From positions 10,044,001 through 10,108,000 of the forward strand of contig NC_134028.1 in the NCBI RefSeq assembly GCF_964204645.1: a DNA stretch of 64,000 nucleotides, written 5' to 3'. Position 1 is the first letter of the stretch. The number at the start of each line of letters is the position of its first letter. Source of the DNA: Tubulanus polymorphus. Its lineage: Eukaryota; Animalia; Nemertea. Below, piece by piece: positions 21,793 to 63,448 of this stretch. The notes below the pieces were generated by a model. It did not search any database and had not been told where the DNA came from. It saw only the letters and a list, made by a program, of their open reading frames with translations. The position numbers and the translations under genes were made by a program.

Positions 21793-21821
21793 AATAAATT
21801 ATTAATTTTTTCATTATATAA

Positions 21822-32630: not shown

Positions 32631-32635
32631 ATGAT

Positions 32636-34360: not shown

Positions 34361-34689
34361 AGAAAATTTTGAAGACGCTTTGATCAATTACCTTGATCTT
34401 TCGTTTATATTTGAATCTACCAAAGGCCCATCAGCATAAGAAAATTGGGTCGATCTGACTCAAGATGGCCGTCCTATGACCTTTTTAGTGCCCAAAAATG
34501 TCAATTTTGGCCAGAATTCTAGGTCCTGTAGCTTCCTACTGGTTTGCCATTTCTCATTGCAATTGCTGATGGGTATTCTTTAGAGAGGGATGTTTTATAC
34601 CTGGGACAGGTATTTTGATCAGCCAATTATGACGCAATTTGCGGCCATCTTGGTGTCATCAGTACTCATTCGTAGGTGGGAAAAAGTTT

Positions 34690-35445
34690 TTCCACATTAA
34701 ATTGATACCTAAGCATATTGTGTTACTATATTCAATTGGAAAGTTGTAGCCCATAACGTGTTCTATGATTTTGGTGAGTTTCAAGGTCATGGGTTTTTGT
34801 ATGTGGCCATCAGGGGGCGTTGAATAATACAATAACTTAGCATCGCTATATTATATTTGTACCAAGGCATATTTTGTTACCACAACCAATTGCAAAGTTA
34901 TATCTCATGACATCGTCTATGATTGTGGTGAGTTTTTAAGAACATTAGTTATTCCATATAGTCACCAGGGGGCGTTGAATAGTAGAAAAGCTTAGTTTTT
35001 CCTTATTAGATTGGTACCTAGGCATAGTTTGTTACCATGATCCATTGCAAAGTTGTAGTTCATGACATCGTCTATGATTGTGGTGAGTTTTTAAGGACAT
35101 TAGTTATTCCATATAGTCACCAGGGGGCGCTGAATAGTAGAATGGCTTAGTATTTCCTTATTAGATTGGTGCCTAGGCATATTTTGTTACTATGATCAAT
35201 TGCAAAGTTGTATTTCATGACATGTACTACGATTGTGGTGAGTTTTAAGGTCATTGGGTTTTGCATATGGTCACCAGGGGGCGTTGAATAGTAGAATAAC
35301 TTAGTATTTTCATATTAAATTGGTAACGAGGCATATTTTGTTATCACAATCAATTACAAAATCAAAGCTTCTCACATGTTCTATGATTGTGGTGGGTTTC
35401 AATGTCATTGGTTTTTGTATATGGTCACTAGAGGGCGTTATGTAT
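34690..35445. repeat. ~155-bp tandem repeat (~5 units), each with a CTCF-like motif
   Basis: CAGGGGGCG core at 34811, 34966, 35121, 35275; TAGAGGGCG at 35429. Confidence 0.88.
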
Positions 35446-35512
35446 TGAAATTGTTAGATTGTTGAGCATTTGAAACCACTTCCCAAGTGAGCATGGTGTC
35501 CCTGGACCCCTA

Positions 35513-35960
35513 TTTTGGTTTTGTCACCCGCGACAATTCAATATTTTGTTTTGCCGTCTGCAACAATTCATTATTTGGTTTTATCGCCCGCTACAATTCA
35601 ATATTTTGGTTTTAACGCCCGCGTCAATTCATATTGCGGTTTTATCGCCCGCGAAAATTCATTATTGCGGTTTTATCGCCCGCGACAATTCATTATTTTG
35701 GTTTTGTCGCACGCAACAATTCAATATTTTGTTTTGCCGTCTGCGACAATTCATTGTTTGGTTTTATCGCCCGCGACAATTCAATATTTTGGTTTTAACG
35801 CCCGCGTCAATTCATTATTGCGGTTTTATCGCCCGCGAAAATTCATTATTTTGGTTTTATCGCCCGCGACAATTCATTATTTTTGTTTTGTCGCCCGTGA
35901 CAAATCAATATTTTGGTTTTGTCACCCGCGACAATTCATAATTTTGGTTTTGTCGCCCGT
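35513..35960. repeat. 31-bp minisatellite array (~14 units)
   Basis: Same unit as 32636-34360. Confidence 0.92.
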
Positions 35961-37290: not shown

Positions 37291-37349
37291 GCTGTAGGCC
37301 TACCGGTACTGAGCTTTACTGTCTCAAACGAACACAGTATAATTGTTGC

Positions 37350-37429
37350 AGTAATTGGAAAAGTGGGCTTTCATACCAGAGGGCGAGACACCACTCATCA
37401 CCAAGTAATTTGTTTTCCTTATAAATGGG
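37350..37429 (+). repeat. Left TIR of copy C (80 bp)
   Basis: AGTAATTGGAAAAGTGGGCTTTCATACCAGAGGGCGAGACACC...TATAAATGGG. Confidence 0.95.
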
Positions 37430-40400
37430 GGAGAATGAACACCAACCAGAAAACAATAATGTCAATAAAAATCAATATTATTGTCAATATTGTAAAAAAT
37501 ACATCGATACATCTCATAAAACACGACATGAAAAATCTGCAAATCATATAAAAAATGTAATAGATTTTGAAACTCCAGAAAATTCCAATGAAAGAAAAGA
37601 ACGATTAGAAAATATGAATGTGGATGAAATAAAATGTGAAGTTTGTAATGAATTTATAGTAAAAAGGAATTATAATAGACATCTCGAATCACAAAACATT
37701 ATAAAAATTTAAATAAAAATGTTTTAGGATTAGAATATTTTGATAATAAACCTCAACAAGTAAAAGAATCAACTTCAAAAACTAAATCCATTTCAAATAA
37801 ACCTTACACGGAAAATGTTAGAAATTATATTGATTCACTAGAAATAAAAGATACAATTGAAATTTTAGAAACATTACATAGTAAAATTGGTCCTGCAGCT
37901 ATTATATTTAGATTTTTTAAAGGTACAACAATAGAAGATTATAGTAAATTTAATGAAATAATAGAAAAAATACTTGATTTGATAACAGATGTTGAATATC
38001 CAAAAATTAGTATCTCTGGGAAAGTAAGTTTTATAAAGTCAGAAGAAAAAATGAATTATAATATTCAAACACTCTCTGAAGAAATAATTTCAAAAACACA
38101 AATAAAAGAGAAGTTAGAAAAAATATTTAATGAATTTAAACGTCATATTGAAGAAAGATATTTTGAGGGTTCTGGCTTAAAATTGAATGAAATTATATAT
38201 TTAGATTTAAATGTTTATAATACAAAAAGAAATAAAACATCAAAAAGTAATAAAATGTTTAAAAATGATTCAAACTTTACAACAGAAAAGGATATTAAAG
38301 CATCATCTTATATTAAATTACCATTTACAACAAAAGCAGTAATAAATATTCAAAATGAAGATAATAAATGTTTTCTATGGTCAATTATTAGTTGTTTACA
38401 CCAAACAGAAGATATGACGCATAGTTTTAGAATAACAAATTACCGGAAATATGAAACATTATATAAAATTGATCAATATCCAGTAACTATAAAAATGATT
38501 CCTAAAATAGAAAAAGTTAATAATTTAAAAATAAATGTATTCGAATTAATGCAATTACCAAAGACAAAAGGTGAAAATATTAAAGATTATACATTGGAAG
38601 CTTTATATTTAACAGAATATTATGATGATGAAAATGCTATAGATTTGTTATATTACAAAAAAGATGAAAATGAACATTATATGTGGTTAAAACAAATTGA
38701 TTTATTCTTTAGAACAGAAAGTGATCATCATCATAAAATTTATCTATGTAGAAAATGTTTATCTAAATTTATGACTGGGAATACATTACTAAAACATAAA
38801 GAATTATGTGATAATAAAGATTTTTGTAAATTAATAATGCCAACAGAAAAAGATTATAAATTGAAATTTACTAATCATAAATTTAAAAATATTGTTCCAT
38901 TTGTAATTTATGGGGATTTTGAATCGTTGAATAAAGAATTAACTGATCAAGATAGAAAAGAAATATATAACAAAAAGCAATTATTAAAATCAATGGATAA
39001 AGGAAGTGAATTAAATGAAGATATAATTCAAGACCCAACAATTATAAATACAATTAAAAAAGTTCATCAAAGAGCTGCTGCTTATGGAATTTATATAAAA
39101 TCAAATTATCCCGAATTATATGAAAGTCAATATATTTCTTTTAGAGGTGAAAATGTAGTTAATGATTTTTGTGATAAAATGATTGAATTAGAAAGTGATT
39201 CTGTAAAATTATTAAACAAAAATAAAAGAATAGTTATGACAAAAGAAGATGAAATTGATTTTAATTATGCAACATATTGTTGTTATTGTGAAAAACGTTT
39301 TTATTCATTTGATAAAAGAGTTAGAGATCATGATCATTTAAATTCAAAATATCGTGGAGCTGCTCATGAAGATTGCAATTTACAAGCTAAAAAAGTAAAT
39401 TTCGTACCAATATTATTTCATAATTTATCAGGATATGATACCCATCTATTTATAAAACAATTATCGGGAAAATTGGATGCAATTAATCAAGAAATAGAAG
39501 AATATAATGCTATGAATGAAGCAAATGTAAGAAAATATGATTTTAAACTATCAGCTAAAACATCTGAAAATTATATTTCATTTCAATTTGGTTGCATTAG
39601 ATTTTTAGATTCTTATAGATTTCTAGCAAATTCATTAGATATTTTATCAAAAAGTTTAGTTGATAATGATTTTGTTATAACTCGATATTATTATCCAAAT
39701 GACCAAGATTTTAAATTATTGAGATATAAAGGCGCAATACCTTACTCATTTTATAAAACGCATGATGATTTCAAAGAAACAAAATTATTAAAAGATCAAT
39801 TTTATGATAAATTAAAAGAGGAGTATGTGAAAGATGAAGTGTTTAATAGAACATAAATATTTTAAATATTTGGAACCATTTTAAGATGAAAAATCATGGT
39901 GAATTAGTTGATTTATATTTAAAATCAGATGTTATGATATTGGCTGATATATTTGAAAAATTTAGAGAAGTTAATTTGAATCATTTTAATGTTGATCCTT
40001 GTTATTGCTACTCTAGTCCTGGTTTAACCTGGCAATGTGGTTTAAAATATACAAATGTAGAATTAGATTTATTAAAAGAACCAGATATGGTTTTATTATT
40101 TGAAAAATCAATTAGAGGTGGAATTAGTGGTGTTATGGGAGATAGGTATTTTAAAGCAAATGATGAATATAAATTATTATATATTGACGCCAATAATTTA
40201 TATGGTTGGGCAATGATGCAACCTCAACCACATAAAAATTTTATATTAACAGACGTTGAAAATGGTGATAAAACTGATTGGGAAAGCGCAATTGCGAGTT
40301 TAAAAGATGAAGCACCAATTGGTTATTTCTTTGTAGTTGATTTAGAATATCCTGAAAATATAAAGTTTAAAACAAGAAACTTACCTTATTGCCCAAAACA

Positions 40401-42501
40401 TTTAACTGTAGATGATAGTTATTTAAGTGAATACCAGAAGAAAATAAAACCGAAAGATCATGTTTTTACAGAAAAATTAATACTTACTCAAAATAATAAA
40501 TACAATTATATTGTTCATTATAGAATGTTAAAATTTTATCTAAAACAAGGAATGAAATTAAAGAAAGTACATAGATATATTGAATTTAATCAATCGAAGT
40601 GGTTAGAAAAATATATAGATTTCAATACTCAACAGAGAACCATATCAAAAACAGATTTTGAAAAAGATTTTTTCAAATTGATGAACAATAGTTTTTATGG
40701 AAAAACATGTGAAAATATTAGAAATAGAAATGATATTGAATTAGTAAATAATTCTGAAAGATTAAGACATTTACAATCAAGTCCTAGACATTTAGGAAAT
40801 AAAAGGTTTGAAGATTATTTAACCACGGTAAAATTAAAAAGAACGTCCATGAAATTTAATAAACCAATATTTATAGGTTCAACTGTTTTAGAAATATCAA
40901 AATTATTAATGTATGATTTTTATTATAATGTTTTGCAACCACTTTTTGGGGAAAAGCATATTGAAATATTATATTTTGATTCTGTAACAGCTGACACCCC
41001 AATATTATTAAAATGTAATAATAAAATATTGGTAAGAAGAATTTCAGAAATAATTCCAAAACAAAATGAACTTTATATTTCATATGGTGAAAAAGAATTA
41101 ATACAAATAAATGGTTTAATAGATGTTTGGACAAGAAATGGATGGAAAAAATTAAAGAATATTATTAGACATAAAACAAATAAGAAAATCTATAGAGTTA
41201 GAACTAAATTAGGATTTGTAGATGTTACAGAAGATCATAGTTTAATTAAACGAAATGGTGATGAAATAAAACCAACTTATATAAAAATTGGAGATGAATT
41301 ATTACATAAAAGATTTTTCCAAAGAATGAATCATATGTCATTTGATGAAATAATTGATAATATTTATAATATAGAACCCGAAACATTAGAACAAAAAGAA
41401 TATTTTATCAAAGGATTTTTCATGGGCGATGGTTCAGCAGGTGTGTATAATTATGTTTGGGGTAATAAATATTGTTGGTATTTATGCAATCAAGACTTAA
41501 AATTATTAGAAAGAATTAAGAAATTCTGTAAAGAAGTTTATCCAAATAAAACATTTAGAATCATGGATGTTATGAAATCAACAGCAGTTTATAGAATACT
41601 TGTAAATAATCCTAAAGATTTTGCTATGAAATATAATGATGAATTCTATATTCATGCAATAGTGAAAAGTAATACTTCAACTAAAGAAAGAATAGTACCA
41701 GATTATGTATTAAATACAAAAAATAATTTAAGAAAGTGGTTCTTCATTGGATTCTATGCCGCAGATGGTTCAAAAAGTTTCCAAAACCGCAAAACAATAT
41801 CCTTTGCTCAAAAAGGAAAAGTTGCTATATCAGGATTGAATATATTATGTAGTTCATTAGGATTTAATATGAATATAGAATTAATTAAATCTAAACCAAA
41901 TTGTTTTAATTTAAGGCATGTAGAAAATGAGTTAACAGAAGAAGTTAAAGATTTATTTGAAATATATAACCCAACTGACTATGTTTATGATTTATCAACA
42001 GATGATGGAACATTCAATTCTGGGTTCCCATTAATCCAAAAAAATACCGACAGTTACATACTAAAAATCAAGACAAATGATATAACAAAAGACTTAAAAA
42101 CATTAAAACATTATTTTGATTTCAGCAATTACCCCAAAGATCATGAACTATTTAGCAATGATAATAAAAAGATTCCTGGTAAGTTTAAAGATGAATTAGG
42201 AGGTGATGAAATGATTGAATTTGTTGGGATAAGAAGTAAAATGTATAGTTACAGAACAAAAGATCATGAAGCTAAAAAGTTAAAAGGAATAACAAAACAT
42301 GTGGTTGATAAACATATAGAATTTCAAGATTATATAAAGTGTTTATATAACTCAATTGTAATGAAACACAAAATGAATTGTTTAAGATCAGAAGATCACG
42401 AGATGTACATTAATGAAGTTGAAAAAACTAGTTTAAATCCATTTGATGATAAAAGGCATATTTCAGATGATGGTATAAAAACATTACCTTATGGCTATTA
42501 A
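37425..42501 (+). pseudogene. polB: pPolB: N-terminal Zn fingers, OTU-like region, exonuclease with EndoVII-like HNH insert, polymerase with intein; two frameshifts
   Basis: C2H2-like fingers; DNKCFLWSI...EHYMW; YGDFES; VRDHDH...GAAHEDCN; FHNLSGYD; YIDANNLYG; KLMNNSFYGK; YFD/TDS; shifts at ~37700 and ~39855. Confidence 0.94.
40981..42045 (+). mobile_element. Intein (355 aa) with intact LAGLIDADG homing endonuclease, inserted in pPolB motif C
   Basis: Block A SVTADTPIL; block B VTEDHSL; LAGLIDADG motifs FIKGFFMGDGS and FFIGFYAADGS; block F YVYDLST; block G IQKN followed by Thr; removal restores YFDTDS. Confidence 0.95.
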
Positions 42502-43799
42502 AACATAAAATCAATATCATCAAACTCGAAATCACTATTGTCTTCTTCATTTTCATTTAATTGTTTAGGTTCTTCTTCTATTCCATTTTTTTCATTTAAA
42601 TAAAGTTCTATCTTGTTCCACATTTCATCTCGCTCTCTTTGTTTCTTTTTGTTTGTTAATTCATCAAATGGAATTATAATATCTAGGTTTAAATAATTTA
42701 CAATCTTATTTAAAAAGAATTCATAATATATTGAATCTGTTATTCTATTTTCTAAATGATATATTAATATTTGTTTGAATATTTTTTTTATATTTTCTAT
42801 ATCTTCTTCTGTTAATTTAGGTTTTTCATAATAATCGTTAAATAATAAATATAAATACATTTTCTTTTCTTTTGTGTTGAATGTTGACGGAATAATTGTA
42901 TTTATAATATCTTTTTTAGTTATTTCACCATTTTCATTTTCTATTATTTTCATTTCTTCAAGCCATTGCATATATTCTAATGTATGATCTTCCATAGAAA
43001 ATATCTTAAAAATTTCATCAAGATAATTTAATTTTGGTTCTATGAGAAAATCTCTAGTTTTTTCTTCGCCCCATAAATTCCTTTGCCATCCACAATCAAC
43101 ACAAAATAACACAGGACCTTCTTGTCTTAAGGTCGTATAATAACATTGTGGGCATTTTTGTTTATAAATTATTGGTAATAGATCTTCATTAAGCTCTTGG
43201 TATTTTCTTACGTTTTCTTTATGTTTTATTGTTCTATCATGTAGATTTGAATTACTTGCTGTAATAATCAATTTACAATATTTACAATAATATGTTTTTC
43301 TTGTTAATTCATTATATTGTTTTTCTAAATTTTCAACTGTTTCTTCATTATCTGGTAACGTTTTCTCATATTTTATTTTTTCTAATAAATTATTTTTTCT
43401 TGCATTGAATTCGGTTTCAAATTTATTAGAAATTTTATCTATATGTGCTTTACGAAATTGATGATTCTCCCAATCTTCTATATTTTCAGGGCTATATTTT
43501 ATTCGACAAGGCTCACAGAAATGATCTTTTATATTATCCTTGTCATAGAATAAGAAAGGTCTTTTCCAAATAATTTCAGGTTCAACTTCAACAGAATTAT
43601 TATCAACATTAGCCATTGCGCCATTAATTCTACACTTCTCTGAATGTTTTTTAACATAATTTCTTGAGAATGATTTATTACATTTTGGACAGTTCATTCT
43701 GGGGGGTTTATAATTTTCTTCATGTTTTTTCATATGTCGAGCCATATTACTTTTTCTGATAAGTTCACCACAAATTTCACAAGCTATCTTCTCATCCAT
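42498..43799 (-). CDS. Multi zinc-finger protein with acidic C-terminus, possible regulator
   Basis: CEIC..H..H, CPKC, CEPC..H, CKYC..H, CPQC..CVDC; acidic tail EEDNSDFEFDDIDF. Confidence 0.8.
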   Translation of the reverse strand: MDEKIACEICGELIRKSNMARHMKKHEENYKPPRMNCPKCNKSFSRNYVKKHSEKCRINGAMANVDNNSVEVEPEIIWKRPFLFYDKDNIKDHFCEPCRIKYSPENIEDWENHQFRKAHIDKISNKFETEFNARKNNLLEKIKYEKTLPDNEETVENLEKQYNELTRKTYYCKYCKLIITASNSNLHDRTIKHKENVRKYQELNEDLLPIIYKQKCPQCYYTTLRQEGPVLFCVDCGWQRNLWGEEKTRDFLIEPKLNYLDEIFKIFSMEDHTLEYMQWLEEMKIIENENGEITKKDIINTIIPSTFNTKEKKMYLYLLFNDYYEKPKLTEEDIENIKKIFKQILIYHLENRITDSIYYEFFLNKIVNYLNLDIIIPFDELTNKKKQRERDEMWNKIELYLNEKNGIEEEPKQLNENEEDNSDFEFDDIDFMF

Positions 43800-43867
43800 T
43801 TATTAAGGAAAAATTTTATTAAAATTAATTTTTAGTGATGAGCGGTAATTTTTTTATGTTATAAATA

Positions 43868-44620
43868 ATGGTAGAATTAAAAGAATACAGAATATTTGTT
43901 GATTCAAGAAAACTTACAAATTATAAATCTCATAATTTATTAGTACAATTAGATAGAGAATTTAAGAATTGTGTAGATTTAAAATTAGTAAATATAAGTT
44001 TATGTAACTCATTTTATAATATAACGGCTAAAAGTCTTGAACATTAATTTTTTTCAATCAGGAGTAAGAATAAATGGAATTATCTATTTTTAAAACCAGG
44101 ATTATATAATTTAGATACATTAGCGCAGGAAATTAATAAAAAAGCTCGGATCAAATTAGGTAGTGATGCTGAATTTAACATTAGATTTTTGAAAAGTGAT
44201 AATTCTAATAAAATGAAGATAAGGTTAGCTCATAATGAAAAATATCAATTTTCAGTTAAAAAACCTATAGCTAAACTATTAGGAATTACACCAGATAAAT
44301 TTTATTCAAATGTTGATACTACGCCAAATATAATACCTTTTACGCACTTCTATATTTATTGCAATTTAATCGATCCTATAAAAACATTTGAAGCAACTAA
44401 AGATACAACATGTAATTCTAGTATATTAAATATTTTACCAATGAAGAACGTTAAACAATTTGGAACGCAAATAAATTATAATTTAGCTGAATGTGATTTC
44501 AAACCTTGTATTCCTCAATTTAATAATTTTAAATTAGAAATAAGAAATCATAATGGATACTTAATTGATTTGAATAACTTTCCTGTAATTTATGAATTAG
44601 TTATAAGATGTAAAGAGTAA
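43868..44620 (+). pseudogene. Putative minor capsid (penton, single jelly-roll) protein; in-frame TAA at 44045
   Basis: IFVDSR, PGLYN, FYIYCNLI, EIRNHNGYLIDLNN..YEL motifs resemble Polinton/virophage mCP; ~250 aa. Confidence 0.65.
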
Positions 44621-44636
44621 TTTTTCGCCTATATAA

Positions 44637-44990
44637 ATGAATATAACTGTTGGACCGAGTATATGTTTTGGGTTTGATTTTAAACGTGAGAAAGAAATAA
44701 AATTTAACATGAATGATGTAATTACACATATCAAAAATATTGCATTTTCTAATGAAACAACATTTGAGTATGAAACAACAATAGATAAAGAAACTTTTAA
44801 TGCAGAAAAGATTACTAATTTAATTAGAGAATCTTTAAGATTTTATGAATTAGATGAAGATTTTATCATCGATGATATTAAAAAAATAATAATTGAAATA
44901 TACACAAATGAAACTAGTAATAAAATAAATGTTGAATTAATCATCACTAAGATAACAAAATATTTTAAAGATAGTAATTTTTTTGATTAA
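44637..44990 (+). CDS. Conserved 117-aa protein
   Basis: Intact in three copies. Confidence 0.78.
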   Translation: MNITVGPSICFGFDFKREKEIKFNMNDVITHIKNIAFSNETTFEYETTIDKETFNAEKITNLIRESLRFYELDEDFIIDDIKKIIIEIYTNETSNKINVELIITKITKYFKDSNFFD

Positions 44991-44993
44991 TAA

Positions 44994-45215
44994 ATGAGTG
45001 ATAATAAGTGGATAATAACTGGATTATATAATGGCGCATTACTATCAGTTGGAACTGTTGGTTATTCAATGGTATTAAAAAAAGTATTCAAAATGGGAAG
45101 TGTTAATGTTGATAGATTTGATATAAATGATATTTTAAAGTTAACATTAGCAGTTACTTTATCTAATTTAACAATTGATTATTTGGAAAAACAAAAATAT
45201 ATTCCTCCCATATAA
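44994..45215 (+). CDS. 73-aa hydrophobic, probable membrane protein
   Basis: Two hydrophobic segments; conserved in D (62309). Confidence 0.75.
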   Translation: MSDNKWIITGLYNGALLSVGTVGYSMVLKKVFKMGSVNVDRFDINDILKLTLAVTLSNLTIDYLEKQKYIPPI

Positions 45216-45242
45216 GAAGTGTGTAATTTTTTTGCTAAATAA

Positions 45243-45665
45243 ATGGCTTCTGCAATTATAACTATTATAGGATCGGCAATTGTTAACGCTTTAGCATTTA
45301 CTGGTGGTGGTTATTTATTTAAACATATTGATAAAAATAGTTCATTAGGAGAACAAAGAAGACATAACTTAGCGTTAGAGAAATACAATAAAGCTGCAGA
45401 AGAATATAGAGAAAAGAGACAAAACTATATGGATTACATCAATAAAGAATTATATGATCAGAAGATTTCACATAGAGATTTTCAATCAGTTGATGATGCA
45501 ATGAGTTTATATAACGCGGTAACCAATAAAGAAAAATTACATCTATACAAACCTAAATTATCAGATTATTGTACCCCAAGTAAAGAACAACAGAAATATG
45601 AAATAATATGGATTTTAGGTGGAACAGTTATTGTTATATTTGTTGCTTATAAATTTACTAATTAG
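45243..45665 (+). CDS. 140-aa protein with hydrophobic N- and C-terminal helices and an EQRRHNLALE coiled segment
   Basis: Conserved in B, C and D. Confidence 0.8.
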   Translation: MASAIITIIGSAIVNALAFTGGGYLFKHIDKNSSLGEQRRHNLALEKYNKAAEEYREKRQNYMDYINKELYDQKISHRDFQSVDDAMSLYNAVTNKEKLHLYKPKLSDYCTPSKEQQKYEIIWILGGTVIVIFVAYKFTN

Positions 45666-45684
45666 TAATTTTTTTTCTAAATAA

Positions 45685-46119
45685 ATGGAAGATAAAGTTG
45701 ATAGTATTGATATTATTCCTCATGATATAAATAAAACTAAATTAAAAACATATTTAGAAAAACAAATATTAGAATTTGAAAGTGACTTAAAGATAAAAAA
45801 GAAAAAATATTTAAAAAGTAAAATTATATATTATTTGATTATAAGTGGTTCGGTTACAATTAGTTCTGTAATAACATTTTTAGCAATATTCAGCCCATTA
45901 ACACCTTTAGCTATATCAATTGGTGTATTAGGATTAAGTTCAAGTGTTTTAACTGGTATAAGTTCAAAATTAAATATAAAAAGTAATAAAGAAAAAATTA
46001 AAACTTATATAAAAGAAATTAATAAATTAAAGAACACACTAGATTATATAATAAGTTTAAATGGTCATATAACAGTTGAAGAACAAGATAAATTATTAAA
46101 AGAATTAATAAATTATTAA
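45685..46119 (+). CDS. 144-aa two-TM protein
   Basis: IIYYLIISGSVTISSVITFLAIF / LAISIGVLGLSSSVL; conserved in D (62998). Confidence 0.8.
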   Translation: MEDKVDSIDIIPHDINKTKLKTYLEKQILEFESDLKIKKKKYLKSKIIYYLIISGSVTISSVITFLAIFSPLTPLAISIGVLGLSSSVLTGISSKLNIKSNKEKIKTYIKEINKLKNTLDYIISLNGHITVEEQDKLLKELINY

Positions 46120-46135
46120 TTTTTTAGTTATATAA

Positions 46136-47437
46136 ATGGGGTTTCCAAAAGCTTTCCAATATAATAAATCAATTAAATATAATATTCCGGCAATAGATTT
46201 TAAGAAAAATATTACATATAAAAATGTAGTTTTAAATTCATTAACTAATTTAGAAATTTATGTTAATGAATCACAGTTTTTTATTTCTAAAATGGAAAAT
46301 ATATTTAATACATATGAAGTTACTTTTACTCGAGATGAATATCATATATATAAAGTAAAATCTAATATGAAATATTGGCAGAATCAATTAAATTTTGCTG
46401 TTTATTGTGCAACAACAGGATGTGGAATAAGTTGGAATGATAATTTAAATAACTTAGATAAAAATTTGAAGTATTCTGATTTAAAATTAATTCACACAAT
46501 ATTTAGATTTCACACATATTTTCAAATCAGAATAATATTAAATGAATTAGAATGTCCTTTACCCGGGTCTAAATATTTTAAAGAATTGGATAATAATATT
46601 AATATATCCAAGTTTTATAAAATATGTAATGAATTTAATATAAATATTAATTCCGATTTCAGAGCGCATGGTAAATTGCAAGGTGTTGGTGAACAGTATG
46701 AAATAAAAAGAATTGATTATATGCATAGAATTGGAGCTTATCATAATTATAAAATTGATAATAATAATGGTTGGGTTAATTTCATTTTAGAAAATGGTGA
46801 AGGTTTTACAAAATCAGGTATACAAAGAATAAATCAATCTATTAGAATTTATTTGATATGTATTTTAGGCGCTCAAGTTGAAACAAGATCCCCAATAATT
46901 GGAAATGATAACACTTCATTCGATGCGCAGAAACAATTTAAAGTTTTATTTGAAGATTCAATTCATAATGATAAAAATAGATCGATTCCAGAAAACATTG
47001 TAAGATATCAAAATTATTTAGATAAATCTCATGTAAGACTTAATTATTGTATAGGCCCTAATCTATTAATTACTTCTAATGATTTAGTATTAAAGATGGG
47101 AAACATAATTGGTTATAATAATCTAATTAAAACTGCAACAATAAATAATTCATTTGGATTAAATGATATAAATAAAAAGATTATCACTGCTCCAAAATTA
47201 ATGGAAGGTGAAAAAAATAAAAAACATATTCAATCAACAGAAACTAAAACTAATAATATTAAATTAAATAATGATTCCAAAATAAAAGATTACAATACTA
47301 CAGAAAATAATAGAACTGATATTATTCAACATGATATAATTAAACTAAATGATGATAATAAATCCCATGAAAATACTAAATTAGCTATAACTTGTATAGG
47401 AATTGTTATAGGAGGAATATTATATTTTAAATTTTAA
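46136..47437 (+). CDS. 433-aa conserved Polinton protein with C-terminal TM anchor
   Basis: WQNQLNFAVYCATTGCGIS, RFHTYFQIR, GWVNFI; C-terminal LAITCIGIVIGGILYF. Confidence 0.82.
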   Translation: MGFPKAFQYNKSIKYNIPAIDFKKNITYKNVVLNSLTNLEIYVNESQFFISKMENIFNTYEVTFTRDEYHIYKVKSNMKYWQNQLNFAVYCATTGCGISWNDNLNNLDKNLKYSDLKLIHTIFRFHTYFQIRIILNELECPLPGSKYFKELDNNINISKFYKICNEFNININSDFRAHGKLQGVGEQYEIKRIDYMHRIGAYHNYKIDNNNGWVNFILENGEGFTKSGIQRINQSIRIYLICILGAQVETRSPIIGNDNTSFDAQKQFKVLFEDSIHNDKNRSIPENIVRYQNYLDKSHVRLNYCIGPNLLITSNDLVLKMGNIIGYNNLIKTATINNSFGLNDINKKIITAPKLMEGEKNKKHIQSTETKTNNIKLNNDSKIKDYNTTENNRTDIIQHDIIKLNDDNKSHENTKLAITCIGIVIGGILYFKF

Positions 47438-47453
47438 TTTTTTTATTATATAA

Positions 47454-48878
47454 ATGGATGTAGAAGGTGGAGAAGATATTGGAATGGATCCTTTTGATGA
47501 ACCTGGTATAACTGAACAACCACCTGATTTTGATGAAACAAGTTTTAATGATGGTAATGAGCCAGAATATAATAATAATTTGAATACACCTCAATATATT
47601 GATAAAACACGTTCAAAGATAAGTATTGAAAATGAAGTACCAGAAATAACAGAAAAAGAATACAATTATAATGAAATTATTCATGAATTTAAACCAATAT
47701 TAAAAAGATCTGGTTTCAATATAACAAATAAAGGTATGAATTATTTAGTAAAAGATTTAAAATATTTAAATGGTGATTATTATTGGAAATTGAAAGGCGA
47801 CTATTATTTTAAGATTTCAAATCTTAAAAGTAGCGATAAAATAATAACACAATCAACTTTTAATTTATTTAAACCAGATAGAATTAAGAAAATCATTGAT
47901 GATGTTATAACTGATGTTACACAAGAAGAAAGAGATGATAATATAAAAGAATTTAAACAAAGAAATGCTAAATTTTTTAAGATAATTAATGAAAATTTAA
48001 GACAAAAAAAAATTCCTAAAGAAGTTATTAATTCCAAAACTAGTAAACCTAATTCAAGCGAAGTTCAAACTGAAAAACTTTTACCAAATGGATTACTTGA
48101 TGCAACAGATCAACAATTAGAAGATTTAAATATATTTTCTGATGAAGCAATTAGAGAAATTATTAGTATAAGAAATGAAGCTGATAAAATTGCACATAAT
48201 AAAAGTATAAGAGATCAAAAAATTAGAACTTTAGAAAAAGAATTAACTGATAAAAATAAAGAAATAGAACAATTAAAGTCTGATTTAGATCATCAAGTAA
48301 TTGATGAAATAGAATATAAACAAAAAGAATTACGTTTAGAAAAAGAAATAGATGATTTGAAATATAACAAAGAATTACAAAAAGAAGAAAGAGATACATT
48401 ATTAAAATCATATGATTATAATATTAATAGATTAAAAGTTATTTTTAAAGATTTGTTGATTAAACCAAATTCTGAAATATCATTAAAAGACAGAATAAGA
48501 TTATTATTTAAATTAGAAGGAATAACAATTCTTTCAATTCTAACAGCTGTAACTATGTTATTTACAACAATTGGTTTAGCAATATCAAATGCTTTGAAAT
48601 CTACTCCTACTCCCAATAAACCGGATAAACCCCCGAATGATAATAATTCTATAAAAGATAAAGTTAAAGATGGTTTAAAGAAATTAGCAAAATATTTATG
48701 GGAACTATCTAAAAAATCTGCTGCAGCATTGCCAGGAGTTATTGCATCAATTGTTGGTTTTATATTGAAATCTGCTGGGAATATTCTTAACTTTGCTGCT
48801 GAACATATTATTTTATTTTTAATTACAGTTGTAAGTGCTATTATTTTTGGTTTAGTAAACATAATCAAAAATAAATAA
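47454..48878 (+). CDS. 474-aa protein: acidic N-terminus, coiled coil, hydrophobic C-terminal helices
   Basis: Heptad-rich middle; GITILSILTAVTMLFTTIGLAI and LPGVIASIVGFIL...IILFLITVVSAIIFGLV. Confidence 0.82.
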   Translation: MDVEGGEDIGMDPFDEPGITEQPPDFDETSFNDGNEPEYNNNLNTPQYIDKTRSKISIENEVPEITEKEYNYNEIIHEFKPILKRSGFNITNKGMNYLVKDLKYLNGDYYWKLKGDYYFKISNLKSSDKIITQSTFNLFKPDRIKKIIDDVITDVTQEERDDNIKEFKQRNAKFFKIINENLRQKKIPKEVINSKTSKPNSSEVQTEKLLPNGLLDATDQQLEDLNIFSDEAIREIISIRNEADKIAHNKSIRDQKIRTLEKELTDKNKEIEQLKSDLDHQVIDEIEYKQKELRLEKEIDDLKYNKELQKEERDTLLKSYDYNINRLKVIFKDLLIKPNSEISLKDRIRLLFKLEGITILSILTAVTMLFTTIGLAISNALKSTPTPNKPDKPPNDNNSIKDKVKDGLKKLAKYLWELSKKSAAALPGVIASIVGFILKSAGNILNFAAEHIILFLITVVSAIIFGLVNIIKNK

Positions 48879-48897
48879 TTAATTTTTTGTTAAATAA

Positions 48898-50148
48898 ATG
48901 AGTGGGAGTTATATAAGTCCTTCTAAGATTTCTAGAATATCTAATGCTATTAAAGCAGAAAGATCACATCATATAATTACTCATAACCCTTCAAATATTA
49001 ATCCCAATGAAACTTTATACGTTAGAATCCCTCGATTAACACAAAATACTTTTTATGTTCCAAATAGTATTTATTTATCAGCCGATATAAAAGTAACTGG
49101 CCATGATAACAATTATGTTGTTGATAATGTTGGGAGATATTTGATTAAAAAATTAATTATAAAGATTGGTCCAGAAACAGTTTTCTCATTAGATGATTAT
49201 AATTTATTTATGCATTATAAAGATTTATGGTTAACTAAAGAAAATAGAAATAATATGATATTCCAAGGCATTCAATCGGTAAACCAAAATAAATTAAGCC
49301 AATAATAATGAAGCCAATAATGCAGTAGTAGCTAATGACGTAGATAATTTGATTAAAAAGATTTATGGAAGCAAATATAAAATTCCGTTAGATTTTGAAT
49401 TGATAAATAATAATGCACCTTTATATAAATACGCAATTCAAGAAGATATTATATTTGAGATAACATTTGCTCCTGTAAATGAAATTGTATTATCTAGCGT
49501 TGTTAAAGATATGGGTTATAAATTATCGAATATATGTTTAGAATATAATACAGTAACTAATGAAATTATTGCTAATACAATTCAAACTCAATACAATCAA
49601 GGATTTTCATTATTATATGATTATATTGATAAATTTAAAACTGTAACTATTAATGCAAATGATGAAATAATTAATGAGAATATTAACTTCCCAAGAAGAT
49701 CTATTAAAGGTATATATTTTTTACCATTGCAACATATTCTAATGGCGCAATAAATGTTGACAATTATTATAATCCTGAAATATCAAAAGTAGAAATAACT
49801 ATTGAAGGTATAGCAAATAAAATATTTTGCCAAGGAATGAGAATGATTGATCAATGGCCAGAAATTAGAAAACATTTTATGAATGAAAAAGTAAAATCAT
49901 TTGAAAATTGTAATATTAATCAAATTGATTATTATACCGGCAATAAATATGCATTATGGTTAGATTTTAGAACAACAGAGGATAATTCATTACATGGTTC
50001 TGGGAAAAAACTACAGAACACTAAAGATGGAATACAATTATTCATGAAAAAGAAAAAAGGAAGCTTAAATTTCAAAATGCACATTTATATTATATCTGAC
50101 GCGCAATTAAATATTGTAAATTCACAATTAGATAGTATTCAATATTAG
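48898..50148 (+). pseudogene. Putative major capsid protein (double jelly-roll), two frameshifts
   Basis: ~415 aa, beta-rich; ITHNPSNI, NVGRYLIKKL, NICLEY, PRRSIKGI, YALWLDFRT..DNSLHGSG; adjacent to integrase and ATPase. Confidence 0.7.
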
Positions 50149-50178
50149 AAATATAAAGTTAAAATTAAGGATATATAA

Positions 50179-51306
50179 ATGGGTGGTAAAAAAACTCATA
50201 ATACTAAAGAACAATATTTAAGAAATTTATATTACAACCCTGAGAGTTCGGTTGCTTATTCTTCTACTAAAAATATATGGCGTAAAGTAAAACAAGATAA
50301 ATTAGATAAGATAATCCCACAAAATTTAGTTAAATATAAAGATATAAATGAATTTATGTTAGAACAACCAACGTATACAACACATAAAAAAATTGTTAGA
50401 AAATATAAAACTCGTAAAACTATGGTAAGTTATGTAGATCAACAGTGGCAAGGAGATTTAATTGATATGAAAAATCTTAAAAAAGATAATAATGATTATT
50501 GGTGGATATTGAATATAATTGATATTTTTAGTCGTTATGTATGGAGCTTCCCACTTTATAGAAAAGATGCTGCACAAACATCACATGTTTTAAGAAAATT
50601 TCTTTCAGGTGGTAAACTAAAACCAGAAAAAATTCAATTTGATGATGGAAAAGAATTTGATAATTCATCTATTCATGGTCTCTTAGATTTTCATAATATT
50701 AAATATTTTTTGACAAAATCGGATAAAAAAGCAGCAGTTGTTGAACGATTTAATAGAACATTAAGAACAAGAATGTGGAAATATTTTACAGCAAATAATA
50801 CTTTTAAATGGATTGATGTTTTACCAAAATTTATAGAAGGATATAATAATTCTTATCATTCTTCTATTGGAATGAAACCTATTGATGCTAGAAAACCTGA
50901 AAATGCTGAAATTGTTTGGAATAATTTATATGGAGCATTTCTTGTAGATGATTTTGGTGAACCTAAATTTAAAGTTGGTCAAAATGTTAGAATTTCTAAG
51001 TATAAAAAGATATTTGATAAAGGATGCGATCGAAATTTTACTAGAGAAATATATAAAATAATAAAGGTAATAACAACTAAACCATATGTCTATAAATTAG
51101 AAGATTTAGATGGTGAAGAAGTTGATGGATATTTTTATGAAGAAGAATTAAGTTTAACTACTGAAAATCTAGAACAAGAATATAAAATTGAAAAAGTATT
51201 AAAAACAAAAACTGTTAAAAGAAAAAAATATTCTTTAGTAAAATGGGTTGGATGGCCAGATAAATTTAATGAATGGATATTATCAAGTAAAATTAAAAAT
51301 ATATAA
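50179..51306 (+). CDS. RVE integrase with C-terminal chromodomain (intact)
   Basis: WQGDLIDM (D), IQFDDGKEF (D), VVERFNRTL (E); YKIEKVL...LVKWVGWPDKFNEWI. Confidence 0.94.
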   Translation: MGGKKTHNTKEQYLRNLYYNPESSVAYSSTKNIWRKVKQDKLDKIIPQNLVKYKDINEFMLEQPTYTTHKKIVRKYKTRKTMVSYVDQQWQGDLIDMKNLKKDNNDYWWILNIIDIFSRYVWSFPLYRKDAAQTSHVLRKFLSGGKLKPEKIQFDDGKEFDNSSIHGLLDFHNIKYFLTKSDKKAAVVERFNRTLRTRMWKYFTANNTFKWIDVLPKFIEGYNNSYHSSIGMKPIDARKPENAEIVWNNLYGAFLVDDFGEPKFKVGQNVRISKYKKIFDKGCDRNFTREIYKIIKVITTKPYVYKLEDLDGEEVDGYFYEEELSLTTENLEQEYKIEKVLKTKTVKRKKYSLVKWVGWPDKFNEWILSSKIKNI

Positions 51307-51915
51307 ATGAATAAGGAATTATTTATATTTGAGCCTCATAATATGTTAATTTCTGGTGTAACAAATTGTGGAAAAACTTATTTTATATTAAATTTATTAG
51401 AAACTGTTTATGAAAACTATTTTGATAATATAGTATTATTTTGTCCAACATATGAATTTAATCAAACTTATAATAGAAATATTACTAGAAATAATAAATT
51501 TATTATATTAGATCCTAAAACAGTAAAAGAAAATTTAGATAATTGTATAAAAATAGCAATTGATATTTATAAAGGATCAAATACATTATTCATTATAGAT
51601 GATTGTGCTAATCTACATGATTCAAAAGTTAGAGAAAGTGAGTTATGTTATTTAGCTTTTTCTGGCAGACATTTTGGGATAACAACTTGGGTTTTAAATC
51701 AAAAATATAATTCAATTGTTAAAGACTTTAGAGAAAACATTAGATTTCTAGTTTTATTCTACAATAAAGATAGAAAATCGATGAAAAATGCACTTGAGGA
51801 AAATGATATTATTCCACATGATTTACATAATGAATATATGGATAAGTTGAAAAATATTAAAAGATCAAAATTACTATTTAGATTACAACACCCATTTAAA
51901 TATGAATTTATTTAA
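51307..51915 (+). CDS. A32/FtsK-HerA-type DNA packaging ATPase (intact)
   Basis: GVTNCGKT, FIIDDC, GRHFGITTWVLNQ, FREN. Confidence 0.92.
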   Translation: MNKELFIFEPHNMLISGVTNCGKTYFILNLLETVYENYFDNIVLFCPTYEFNQTYNRNITRNNKFIILDPKTVKENLDNCIKIAIDIYKGSNTLFIIDDCANLHDSKVRESELCYLAFSGRHFGITTWVLNQKYNSIVKDFRENIRFLVLFYNKDRKSMKNALEENDIIPHDLHNEYMDKLKNIKRSKLLFRLQHPFKYEFI

Positions 51916-51924
51916 ATTCAATTA

Positions 51925-52265
51925 GTTTGTTAATCTAGTTGAATTCTAGTTATTGGTAGTTGTAACAAAAATCAAATAGATTTAACAATATTTTAACTAG
52001 CTTGTTAATCTAGTTTAATTCTAGTTACATTCTAGTTGAATTCTAGTTGTTAGTAGTTGTAACAAAAATCAAATAGATTTAACAATATTTTAACTAGCTT
52101 GTTAATCTAGTTTAATTCTAGTTATATTCTAGTTGAATTCTAGTTGTTAGTAGTTGAAACAAAAATCAACTAGATTTAACAAGAAATAAACAAACACAAC
52201 AATATTTCAACTAGCTTGTTAATCTAGTTGAATTCTAGTTACATTCTAGTTAAATTCTAGTTGCA
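51925..52265. repeat. 97-bp tandem repeat (~3.5 units) built of CTAG-rich subunits
   Basis: AACAAAAATCAA at 51964, 52061, 52158; recurring TTCTAGTT. Confidence 0.85.
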
Positions 52266-52294
52266 ACATCACAACTAATTTTTTTGTTATATAA

Positions 52295-52900
52295 ATGGTA
52301 GGTGAAAAGAAAATAAAATCTAAAAATGGTGATGTTCCAATTGAAAAAACTTTAGATGATTTAGGAATAACAGAAAACAAATTAATTCCAGATGATGGTG
52401 CTTTAAGTAATGTTACAACAAATAATAATTATGAATATTATCTTTATTGTAAACATCAATTAGAAATATTAATAGCATCTGGAAAATGTAAAAATTTTGT
52501 CGGTAAAAATTTAACTTATAATGAATTAGATACAATGAAATCAGATGAAATTATTAGATTATTTAAGATTTATGAAGCCGCGAGAACAGCTAGAATTAAT
52601 GACGCGATATCAGAAAATGTAGTAAAAGGTTATAGTAAATTATGTAATTATATACTACCAATTGAAAATGAAAATAGATTATATTCCGATTTAAAAAATG
52701 ATTATTTAGTTATGACTGAATTAAATAAATGGATTGGATATTTATCATTTCAATTAGGTGGATTTATGACATTATTATCAACGGGGGTTATAACATTTTC
52801 AAATATTGAAAGTAAAAATATTTCTATAATAAATGAGCGAGGTGAAAGAAGTGAAGGAATTAACTGTGAAGAAAAAACCGAGAACTCAGAAACAAATTGA
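52295..52900 (+). CDS. Conserved 201-aa Polinton protein
   Basis: Homologue at 7604-8206. Confidence 0.8.
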   Translation: MVGEKKIKSKNGDVPIEKTLDDLGITENKLIPDDGALSNVTTNNNYEYYLYCKHQLEILIASGKCKNFVGKNLTYNELDTMKSDEIIRLFKIYEAARTARINDAISENVVKGYSKLCNYILPIENENRLYSDLKNDYLVMTELNKWIGYLSFQLGGFMTLLSTGVITFSNIESKNISIINERGERSEGINCEEKTENSETN

Positions 52901-53201
52901 ATGGTCTCGACAATTAGGAATTAAATCACAAGAATATAAAAAAGCTGTAAAAGAAAAAATAAGTAATAAAAATGTTAATAAAAATGGTGAAAATATTGTT
53001 ATTTCTACTCCTTCTGATAGTAGAATATTTGATAAATATTTATATTTTACAGTTGGATTTGTAATTGTATTCATTTTGATTGGGTGTAATTGGTATAAGA
53101 AATCAAATAAAATTCATGATATTAGTAATTCTGAACCAACTGCTATCAAAAATGAAAGTACTTCTGAAATTCCAAAATTGATAATAAAAAAAATGGATTA
53201 A
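52833..53201 (+). CDS. 122-aa basic protein with a single TM
   Basis: YLYFTVGFVIVFILIGC; homologue at 8199. Confidence 0.75.
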   Translation: MSEVKEVKELTVKKKPRTQKQIEWSRQLGIKSQEYKKAVKEKISNKNVNKNGENIVISTPSDSRIFDKYLYFTVGFVIVFILIGCNWYKKSNKIHDISNSEPTAIKNESTSEIPKLIIKKMD

Positions 53202-54207
53202 TATTTTAGAAAAAAAGCAAAAAAAATAATTGAATATCTCACTACTTTTGTCTATCTATGCGGAGCAATTAAATTGTCCAGATAAGTCATTTCGGATTCT
53301 AGATATTCATTATTTTTATCAATTTATTTTGTTTTTATTTGAATATTTGAATTTGAATTTGTTAATCAATTAACATAGTAATTGATTACTAATTTGATTA
53401 AAAATTATATCATAATGAAGTTAAAAATACATAATTCATTTATCAGTTTTCATTCTTACATTCTTTTCATTCGGAATAATTTATAATTTCAAATTTCACA
53501 TATTTTTTTAAGCACCAACAACATTTACTTAAGTGTTTTAGCTAAGTATATAAGGCAATTCATTCAACCACTGGAGTGCCGCCGGGCTTGGCTTGCAGGG
53601 GCATTTCGAAAATGCGCCTTTGTCCACCTTCCGTGGTTCTCCTTCAGTTTCGACTTTCGATCCTCCTTTCGGGGGTAAGGGGTTGATAGGAAATGCATTA
53701 GGCGCCTTTAATATAATGTGTTTCCTGTCAACCATTGAAGGAGAATTGGTGAGGTGTGGGTCACAGGGGTGTAATTAGAAATGCTTGGGGAAAGGTATCT
53801 CGTGGCGCCTCTCAATAACGGGATGCTTATCCCCTAAAAACTCTGTGAGTCAAGTCGGGTGGTTTTGCTAAAACTTACCGTAAAAACATTGAAATATTCC
53901 TTTTAATCACGAGAGAATGATGACTATCCTCCTGTCGTCACGGCTGAGCTAATTTAAATAAACCTCGCTTTCAGCAACTAATGAAAACGCAGTAATTCAA
54001 TACCAGCTAACTGGCTTGTGTGGTGTTGTATGTACTGCGTGCTAATTATATAACAACAACGTTGTGCAACACCTGTTTGATTGATCAATATTCAAATGAA
54101 GCACTCTCTTATAATAACATGTAACAGATGTACTGTATGATTGTAGTTGTTTATAAAACGACTAAGGTCATTTTGGATTCTAGATATTCATTATTTTTAT
54201 TTTTTAT

Positions 54208-54534
54208 TCAATCAACAATTTCTAAATCATGATGACCGTCTTCATTTTTCCCATGATATATTATTTTAAATCCTACTAAATCTTTCAATTCCTCCGTACT
54301 CAATGAAACCCATTTATCGGGTAAAAACACTTTAAATTCTCGCGATGTACTAACATTACAGTAGCTTAAATTAGCTGATACTTTCTCTCCATATTTAGTT
54401 TTTATCTTTTCTAATTTCAATATTTTATGTTCAATTTCTTTTGTAACATCAACTAACTTTTTTATTTCAAATTGTTTTTTTGCTGGTTTTATTCTGTTAT
54501 TTATTGTTGCTAAGAATGCTTTTCTATCTCCCAT
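54208..54534 (-). CDS. 108-aa protein starting inside the right TIR; possible OB-fold ssDNA-binding protein
   Basis: TKYG..FKVFLPDKW..IIYHGKN; degenerate homologue at 60781-61130; fold is a guess. Confidence 0.65.
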   Translation of the reverse strand: MGDRKAFLATINNRIKPAKKQFEIKKLVDVTKEIEHKILKLEKIKTKYGEKVSANLSYCNVSTSREFKVFLPDKWVSLSTEELKDLVGFKIIYHGKNEDGHHDLEIVD

Positions 54535-54617
54535 TTATAAGGAAAACAAATTACTTGGTGATGAGTGGTGTCTCGCCCTCTCGCCCTCTGGTATGAAAGC
54601 CCACTTTTCCAATTACT
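54530..54617 (-). repeat. Right TIR of copy C (88 bp)
   Basis: Reverse complement of the left TIR with one extra 8-bp AGGGCGAG unit. Confidence 0.95.
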
Positions 54618-54959
54618 TGTTGCATTTATTAACGGACTCATTGGATTGAACTTCAAAACAAAATTTACGATATTTAGGTGGGTTGTTATTCAATAGGCCT
54701 ACGACCAATCTGTCCGGATGTAAGGCCTACGCATATACATAGGCCTACATAGGCTAGTAGCCTCTACTAGGTTAAGCGTTCGCTGTGGGGGAAAGGAGAT
54801 CGTTCGCTGTGTCGCTTGAAGTGTTTATCGAGTTTTACGCGACCTTAAGGCTTTATAGTATGGTGGCTGATAAGGGCCATGCGTAAAAAAACACGTATAT
54901 GCAAATGAGGGCGACATTATGACAAAACGACAAAACTAAAATAACGCGACAAAACAATA

Positions 54960-55670
54960 ATTTTAGTTTTGTCGCCCGCGACAATTCATTATTTTGGTTT
55001 TATCGCCCGCGACAATTCATTATTTTGGTTTTATCGCCCGCGACAATTCATTATTTTGGTGTTGTCGCACGCGACAATTCATTATTTTGGTTTTATCGCC
55101 CGCGACAATTTTTTTTTTTTGTCGCGGTTTTATCGCCTGTGACAATTCAATATTTTGGTTTTATCGCCAGCGACAATTCATTATTTTGGTTTTATCGCCC
55201 GCAACAATTCATTAGTTTGGTTTTGTCGCCCGCGACAATTCAATATTTTGGTTTTGTCGCCCGCGACAATTCATTATTTTGGTTTTATCGCCCGCGACAA
55301 TTCATTATTTTGGTTTTATCGCCCGCGACAGTTCATTATTTTGGTTTTGTCGCACGCGACAATTCATTATTTTGGTTTTATCACCCGCGACAATTTTTTT
55401 TTTGCCGCGGTTTTATCGCCTGCGACACTTCAATATTTTGGTTTTATCGCCTGCGACAATTCAATATTTTGGTTTTATCACCAGCGACAATTCATTATTT
55501 TGGTTTTATTGCCCGCGACAATTCATTTTTTTGGTTTTGTCGCCCGCGACAATTCAATATTTTGGTTTTATCGCCAGCGACAATTGATTATTTTGGTTTT
55601 ATCGCCCGCGACAAATGATTATTTTGGTTTTATCGCCCGCGACAATTAATTTTTTTGGTTTTGTCGCCCA
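54960..55670. repeat. 31-bp minisatellite array (~23 units)
   Basis: Same unit and same upstream flank as the 32636 array. Confidence 0.93.
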
Positions 55671-56465: not shown

Positions 56466-56712
56466 CTAAAAATATTCATATACATGAATAAAATATAAAT
56501 GAATAACATTTAAATTGACAGATTATTCAATATAAAAGTGTGAGCTCTTATAGAATAGATATATAGATATATTTACAACATTATTTAAATATTTATATTT
56601 GTATGAGTTAGATTTTAAACATTAAAAGTGTTAGTAAAGTGTGATTGAAATAATACATGATATAAATCATTGAACTTCTAAAATCAATTTAAAAAAAAAA
56701 TTTAGTATTAAA

Positions 56713-60751: not shown

Positions 60752-60780
60752 TCAAATTTTAATAAAAATATGTTATTAAA

Positions 60781-61130
60781 ATGGAGAGTAAACAAACACA
60801 CAGTGAGAACAACAAATTATTTCTAGATAGAATAAAAGATACTTCAAATGTCAAATCAGTAGATTATAAATTTAAGAAGTTAAAAGAATTAATAATCCAT
60901 AAGAAATATCTTATTACAGATATTGTTACAGTTACTAACAAATATGGATTTTAGTTATACACTTAGAATATGAAGGATTAAAAGGAAATACATATAAATT
61001 CAGAACATATTTACCGGATAGATTTCATAGATTATCAAGTGAAGACTTAGCAGAATTATGTTCTGGAGATTTTTATTTCGTATACAAAGGTAAGAATGAA
61101 AAAGGGCACCATGAAATAGATTTCGAATAA
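60781..61130 (+). pseudogene. Homologue of the 108-aa protein at 54208-54534, frameshifted
   Basis: FKKLKEL..TNKYG..FRTYLPDRF..FVYKGKNEKGHHEIDF. Confidence 0.7.
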
Positions 61131-61147
61131 GAAAATATGTAAAATAA

Positions 61148-61935: not shown

Positions 61936-61951
61936 TTTTTTCATTATATAA

Positions 61952-62530: not shown

Positions 62531-62554
62531 ATGCATAATTTTTTTGCTAAATAA

Positions 62555-62977: not shown

Positions 62978-62997
62978 TAATTTTTTTTGCTAAATAA

Positions 62998-63432: not shown

Positions 63433-63448
63433 TTTTTTAATTATATAA

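Follow-up and report, generated by a model that had tools for sequence, protein, structure and literature searches.

Mavericks/Polintons (Polintoviricetes, including the 'adintoviruses' of animals; PMC8502044) are described as elements of 15–20 kb with AGT-ended inverted repeats and a 6-bp target-site duplication, encoding a DNA polymerase B that is primed by a protein (pPolB), an RVE integrase, an A32-type packaging ATPase, a double jelly-roll capsid protein and a penton. In protists, several small parasites have a promoter motif in common with a large DNA virus, namely mavirus and the type-4 endogenous mavirus-like elements (EMALEs), which carry the late motif TCTA of Cafeteria roenbergensis virus (CroV), Gezel-14T, which carries the early motif AAAATTGA of Phaeocystis globosa virus (PgV), and the pacmanvirus transpoviron (PMC11788076). 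Such shared promoters are the proposed means by which mavirus and EMALEs (PMC8547959), Gezel-14T (bioRxiv 2022.07.28.501842) and the transpoviron (PMC11788076) are activated. Here, we analysed a 64,000-nt stretch of the genome of the nemertean Tubulanus polymorphus (NC_134028.1, positions 10,044,001–10,108,000; hereafter the window, to which all coordinates refer). Element C, which occupies 17.3 kb of the window (37350–54617; ca. 24% GC, i.e., 76% AT), has the Maverick/Polinton features listed above up to the capsid protein, and a weakly supported candidate for the penton gene. Nearly all of its genes start at a signal resembling poxvirus late promoters, and its polymerase carries an intein of a type found in giant viruses. 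Because of these two traits, the family to which C belongs is likely read by a large DNA virus that it parasitises.

C resembles the protist systems as a small, presumably parasitic element sharing a promoter motif with large viruses, and mavirus also in its integrated state, pPolB and RVE integrase. In contrast to these systems, with protist hosts and known helpers, C has another motif and an animal host, and its helper is only predicted. Entomopoxvirus-associated polinton-like viruses (PLVs; PMC11296320), which have been reported in insects, are Polinton-like and are proposed hyperparasites of poxviruses in animals, but they were obtained from occlusion bodies and have a protease and no RVE integrase. 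A term search of the whole main text of that paper found no promoter or intein analysis. An Aquintovirus/Gezel-like clade of PLVs has also been reported from Octocorallia, Hydrozoa and Bivalvia (bioRxiv 2026.06.19.733378). The terms 'promoter' and 'intein' do not occur in PMC8502044 or PMC11131425, and our literature search, which left out supplements and most subscription papers, found neither the promoter signal nor a canonical intein described for animal Polintons.

An earlier note on this DNA had reported that 14 of the 15 genes in C start at ATAAATG. This count and all 15 start coordinates were correct, and the remaining start (43868) reads ATAAATAATG. The enrichment against internal ATGs, which the note had proposed as a check, was pronounced: ATAAATG stood at 14/15 starts versus 12/656 other ATGs in C (Fisher p = 4e-21), and the shorter TAAATG had a background of 33/656 (p = 1e-16). 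When only sense-strand ATGs were considered, the backgrounds were 10/422 for ATAAATG and 21/422 for TAAATG. As the starts at 37425 and 54534 lie within one shared inverted-repeat sequence, the independent count is 13/14. The same pattern had been claimed for the window copies A, B, B' and D. Orthologous starts did agree, except that the polymerase of copy D starts at TAAAATG (56713); these copies are 74%–98% identical to C, so their agreement is not independent. Intergenic gaps were mostly < 35 bp, as had been noted (11/14, overlaps included), the other three measuring 68, 379 and 1006 bp.

Independent support came from metagenomes. A capsid alignment search yielded 25 loci, for which capsid identity was measured to an intact relative (P0148) and open reading frames (ORFs) of at least 90 aa were counted. 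In the 15 loci with 52%–100% capsid identity, TAAATG was present at 52/61 ORF starts versus 89/2210 other ATGs, and the ten loci at 52%–59% identity still had the motif at 22/28 starts. The counts fell to 1/17 in five loci at 35%–46% identity and to 0/8 in five weak matches. In a quick capsid tree, a branch set the motif-bearing loci apart (Shimodaira–Hasegawa-like approximate likelihood ratio test, 94). They covered 20%–44% GC and several gene orders, and the motif was kept at 40%–44% GC (L005 and L006). Because the motif is confined to one capsid clade over this range of composition, it is a clade trait rather than a compositional effect. Scans of viral contigs that used the ATPase, a full pPolB or the capsid alignment returned no loci.

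Some start contexts outside this pattern were also seen. In L019, which belongs to a sister lineage, 3/4 ORFs begin at A-runs (TAAAAATG, TAAAAATG and ATAAAAATG) instead of TAAATG, possibly a variant initiator, and in L015 and L016 the start context differs again. In L001, an intact relative, the promoter motif seen in C also precedes a deoxynucleoside kinase gene (10340–10981; Pfam dNK, E = 2e-31).

A profile built from 67 motif starts (13 loci after two near-copies were dropped, plus C) showed AA at −18/−17 and then a T-run from −15 to −10, in which T is most frequent at −12 (93%); A follows at −4 (87%), ahead of TAAATG, and +4 is G in 70%. In the relatives, T at −12 distinguished motif starts (46/49) from non-start TAAATG (34/108; p = 2e-14). 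In vaccinia late promoters, similarly, TAAAT(G) overlaps the start codon, and a T located ten bases upstream, with other Ts around it, is conserved (PMC11980589; PMC5294985). The description of TAAATG as a poxvirus-late-type initiator was thus borne out, given that TAAAT(G) overlaps the start codons and the T-rich core, in which a T some ten bases before TAAAT is highly conserved, lies within one base of the vaccinia layout. The signal differs from poxvirus late promoters in its additional AA at −18/−17 and in its position before all gene classes, including the polymerase; moreover, the Polinton element encodes no detectable RNA polymerase. Six divergent gene pairs had TAAATG on both sides with their ATGs 19–30 nt apart (two of these pairs are near-copies and two more are related), leaving little space for leaders.

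The T-runs had been described in the earlier note as often TTTTTNT, the weakest part of its observation, and had been linked to the poxvirus early terminator. A T5 run occurred at −35 to −8 of 10/15 starts in C, whereas the strict TTTTTNT was found within 40 nt after the stop in 5/15 genes. Runs of at least four Ts preceded 13/16 divergent, 7/8 first and 17/30 tandem genes, and so were at least as frequent where no gene ends upstream. Furthermore, 4/5 genes of C with no motif close after their stop (ends 42501, 51915, 53201 and 54208) lacked T5 within 40 nt. Because the T-run accompanies gene starts rather than gene ends, it is better regarded as a promoter core, and termination is not supported as its main role. 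One observation favours termination: TTTTTNT was under-represented in the coding strands of C (11 versus 24 ± 6 in codon shuffles, a control that is crude for broken genes). An AATAAA poly(A) signal was also considered as a source of the motif and rejected, AAATAA being equally common before divergent (6/16) and tandem (7/30) genes.

The anatomy places C among the Mavericks/Polintons and outside the virophage family. Its AGT-ended inverted repeats are bordered by a 6-bp target-site duplication (Table 1), and 620 reads (run X5) join 37342 to 54617 across 17,274 bp. These flank-joining reads confirm the ends of the element; they may come from alleles without it or from further copies of the host repeat. 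Several genes are broken, and C is therefore a decayed Maverick/Polinton. A virophage-type capsid with a cysteine protease was not found; among the structural matches of the capsid, those of Sputnik and mavirus, at 10%–13% identity, rank far below PBCV-1-type (Paramecium bursaria chlorella virus 1) folds. No protease family, and thus no adenain-like maturation protease as in group 1 Mavericks/Polintons, was detected in Pfam scans of C and its relatives, which leave some ORFs unassigned, and no BFVD model exceeds 15% identity to the capsid; in both respects C is unlike described Mavericks/Polintons. The earlier term 'virophage-like element' therefore fits the predicted lifestyle alone. The antiviral role that the note had raised as a possibility is conjectural, and none of the capsid genes in the window is unbroken.

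The second line of evidence is the polymerase intein. With its N-terminal Ser, TEDH block (TxxH), penultimate Lys as in many viral alleles, C-terminal Asn, Thr at +1, uninterrupted frame and an empty allele, the insertion has the features by which canonical inteins are predicted. Copy A also holds the intein (12806–14400), whereas copy D does not and has an empty site at 60217; filled and empty alleles (C and D) thus occur 19 kb apart in one window. In copy A, a 1141-bp tandem duplication with near-identical units spans the intein start (12500–14660). The Mimivirus PolB intein (pol-c allele) has the same site, length and ends as that of C (PMC549080): about 350 aa, Ser...Asn followed by Thr, a LAGLIDADG endonuclease and the same catalytic-motif site. 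It differs in that the intein of C resides in a protein-primed Polinton polymerase, in an animal genome, and is present or absent among copies. The available portion of a 2018 survey places eukaryotic inteins in fungi, in algae and some protists, and in viruses, and names no nuclear example from animals; that of PMC11161782 suggests that endonucleases inserted in the polymerases of Polintons may be intein invasions, with no canonical intein at the YFD/TDS site.

Among the best 120 of 245 homologues, nine inteins were in Polinton-type polymerases, most others were in RNA-primed PolB between YGD and TDS, and a few were in topoisomerase II. A quick unrooted tree was built from 70 full-length inteins, with 50 of the 120 homologues omitted (51 of 121 rows) for truncation, unparsed ends or length. 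Five Polinton inteins formed one side of a branch (88), within a starred group that also held five inteins of RNA-primed PolB. All 80 viral contigs that were kept (of 478 confirmed) had the intein between YGD and TDS, and 25 of them, including the six best, were labelled as giant-virus metagenome-assembled genomes (MAGs). The intein suggests past co-residence with a large DNA virus. In addition, the topoisomerase II site (DQD or DAD before TDG) holds the same intein family in P0077, P0079, P0081, P0084, P0087, P0089 and P0114, and these inteins formed their own starred clade in the quick tree.

Taken together, clade-wide conservation, the T at −12, the closely spaced divergent starts, the lack of a detected RNA polymerase and the intein suggest that the motif-bearing clade is probably transcribed by a co-infecting helper, a large DNA virus with poxvirus-late-like promoters. 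The earlier proposal of transcription by the polymerase of a co-infecting nucleocytoplasmic large DNA virus (NCLDV) was thus supported as regards a probable helper dependence; a poxvirus as that helper was not shown, because TAAATG also stands at the start of about half of the genes in two giant-virus MAG contigs (L115, 8/17; L118, 6/11), some with an upstream T-run. The signal of ca. 20 bp (AA, T-run peaking at −12, spacer and ATAAATG) would act as a promoter for the RNA polymerase of the co-infecting virus, as poxvirus late promoters do. Transcription would start inside the AAA of TAAAT and yield one mRNA per gene with nearly no templated leader, and a slipped poly(A) leader would place A at −3 instead of the genomic T. 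An integrated copy might remain silent until a helper infects the cell, whereupon free copies could replicate and be packaged beside helper DNA. This co-residence would be the likely route by which an intein entered the polymerase of an ancestor. Copy C, being broken, could not do this unaided.

Several observations weigh against this reading. The two MAG contigs imply that TAAATG is not specific to poxviruses; they were chosen by the promoter pattern itself and are possible representatives of a helper type. A scan for the helper pattern gave 15 loci, mostly chance matches off gene starts, with matches at ORF starts only in L115, L117 and L118, and no helper was found. Within C, T at −12 is present in 12/14 motif starts and missing from those of the integrase and ATPase, and the conserved T of vaccinia is at −13 by the count in PMC11980589, compared with −12 here. 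Among the ORFs left unassigned, a self-encoded transcription factor is possible. As for the intein, the query for viral contigs was built from RNA-primed PolB-type polymerases, which biased the resulting set, and the same allele also occurs in archaea (PMC549080). P0007, among the nearest tree neighbours of the Polinton inteins, looks like a phage polymerase. Copy D has no intein, and some other motif-bearing elements may have none, their loci holding no polymerase. The intein-bearing viral contigs had TAAATG at 112/930 starts, a modest enrichment, so the evidence does not link intein donor and promoter partner to a single virus.

Transcription by host RNA polymerase II (Pol II) from a compact initiator, perhaps steered by an element-encoded factor, would make C an autonomous nuclear provirus or transposon. 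The element is integrated in nuclear DNA and has reached many copies, several of its ORFs remain without an assigned family, and about half of the motifs read TATAAA. The other half, however, read AATAAA, TTTAAA or GCTAAA, and a TATA box adjoining the ATG would, by its established spacing, place the transcription start inside the ORF. The divergent ATGs 19–30 nt apart also fit poorly with Pol II, and no TBP or TFIIB match was found by Pfam in the ORFs of C and the scanned relatives. Kozak context prefers a purine at −3. The T at −3 in the motif is the opposite, which makes it a poor context for translation of a Pol II transcript and excludes Kozak context as the cause of the motif. We consider the host-polymerase explanation unlikely; it stays alive because, in corals, host RNA-seq shows detectable expression of polintovirus genes (PMC11131425), an observation that also counts against strict helper dependence. 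Alternatively, the signal might be a relic of a helper in another host (a protist, symbiont or prey), with the worm copies arising by transposon spread or representing dead ends, in which case the worm itself would be free of the helper. All close relatives found are metagenome contigs, giant-virus MAGs use the motif, and no window copy has an unbroken capsid gene. Nevertheless, the window holds several divergent copies (74%–98% identity) and the reads show many more, and amplification in this genome required expression from these starts. The motif is also intact at orthologous starts despite decayed frames, although promoters are small mutational targets. A relic is a somewhat less probable origin than host transcription.

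An effect at the level of translation, in which TAAATG supplies an in-frame stop guarding the start or couples stop and restart on polycistronic RNAs, appears very improbable. The TAA shares the reading frame of the ATG, little space is left between genes, and the TAA of the ATPase start is the stop codon of the integrase. However, this TAA was the stop of the upstream gene in only 1/30 tandem starts, on which count stop–restart coupling was rejected. Moreover, the triplet before ATG was TAA in 54/62 starts and never TAG or TGA (0/62), the motif also precedes divergent and first genes, and neither A at −4 (87%) nor T at −12 (93%) is explained. It is hardly conceivable that the motif merely results from ORF calling in a sequence of 76% AT. 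It is true that the ATG following an in-frame TAA is always the first in its ORF and that C is AT-rich, but the background was 4%–5% and the motif persists at 40%–44% GC; the background counts in C and its relatives refute such an artefact. Helper-virus transcription thus remains the reading that we prefer.

The features of C are listed in Table 1. Its polymerase is assigned to the pPolB type by its motifs; Pfam DNA_pol_B_2 gave no match in it. The predicted structure of the P0148 capsid matched the capsids of PBCV-1 and iridovirus (E = 3e-14). For the probable penton gene, the model of the L001 counterpart (predicted local distance difference test, 52) had the mavirus penton as its best, weak match (E = 8e-4). 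The 433-aa family at 46136–47437 had no Pfam or PDB match, even when searched as a family of 60 members, and is apparently a conserved gene of these elements. No RNA polymerase, TBP, TFIIB or other transcription-factor families were found in Pfam scans of C and the scanned ORFs of its relatives, and Rfam gave 0 matches.

Table 1. Features of element C and its borders (window coordinates).
Feature	Position	Strand	Basis or remark
Left target-site duplication, TGTTGC (6 bp)	37344–37349	+	Right copy at 54618–54623
Left terminal inverted repeat, AGT start, holding the promoter-like motif of the first gene	37350–37432	+	Sequence comparison
Protein-primed DNA polymerase B, three ORFs (37425–37712, 38051–39856, 39886–42501)	37425–42501	+	36%–44% identity to intact P0003
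Intein, 355 aa, Ser...Asn then Thr, LAGLIDADG endonuclease, inserted between YFD and TDS, open frame	40981–42045	+	TIGR01445, 33 bits (cut-off 24.5)
Zinc-finger protein, 433 aa, ATAAATG start	42498–43799	-	ORF and domain scan
Probable minor capsid (penton) gene, broken, start ATAAATAATG	43868–44620	+	42% identity to L001 protein
Four small conserved genes (117, 73, 140 and 144 aa), each after T-run and ATAAATG	44637–46119	+	ORFs, relatives
Example of promoter-like signal: A, T-run (−16 to −11), spacer, ATAAATG (ATG at 46136)	46119–46138	+	Layout precedes most genes
433-aa protein, large family	46136–47437	+	1805 clusters at 50% identity
474-aa protein, coiled-coil-like stretch, hydrophobic C-terminal segments	47454–48878	+	ORF and domain scan
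Double jelly-roll major capsid protein gene, three pieces	48898–50148	+	Pieces 66%–81% identical to P0148
RVE integrase, weak chromodomain match, open frame	50179–51306	+	PF00665, E = 9e-10
A32-type packaging ATPase, open frame	51307–51915	+	PF04665, E = 1e-12
97-bp tandem repeat in long intergenic gap	51934–52182		Sequence
Two conserved genes (201 and 122 aa), both with ATAAATG starts	52295–53201	+	ORFs, relatives
Terminal gene, 108 aa, start motif within right inverted repeat	54208–54534	-	74% identity to L001 terminal gene
Right terminal inverted repeat	54527–54617	-	90% identity with left repeat over 91 nt

C sits within a high-copy repeat, beside 31-bp and 155-bp satellite arrays (32634–35959 and 54945–55669), and a 24-bp stretch is repeated on both of its flanks (37219 and 54773). 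At least five Polinton copies or fragments are clustered in the window (5100–31530 and 56700–64000), in both orientations and some nested. A fragment at ca. 6600–9200 is merely 65%–73% identical to C, and the polymerase of copy D is 74% identical. Copy A hosts an inserted Penelope-type retroelement with a reverse transcriptase and a probable GIY-YIG domain (18600–21800). Over one third of its length, this reverse transcriptase is 99% identical to a protein that NCBI assigns to T. polymorphus.

A Polinton-carried intein in an animal genome, with filled and empty alleles, is notable in itself, and it records contact with large DNA viruses separately from the promoter signal. A more specific scenario, which we regard as doubtful, is that ribbon worms or related marine invertebrates are infected by a cytoplasmic, poxvirus-like virus not yet described, and that this Polinton clade represents its virophages, silent in the genome, switched on via promoters mimicking its late promoters, swapping inteins with the polymerases of large viruses and restraining the helper. 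If true, an animal would possess an endogenous virophage defence, and a short motif would predict the promoter of the helper. The Mavericks/Polintons of animals may be autonomous viruses, transposons or parasites of larger viruses, and no virions have been seen. A clade-wide promoter of the helper type makes this question of lifestyle directly testable, as it leads to predictions for the start sites of transcripts, for untemplated A leaders on them and for the form of the helper's late promoters.

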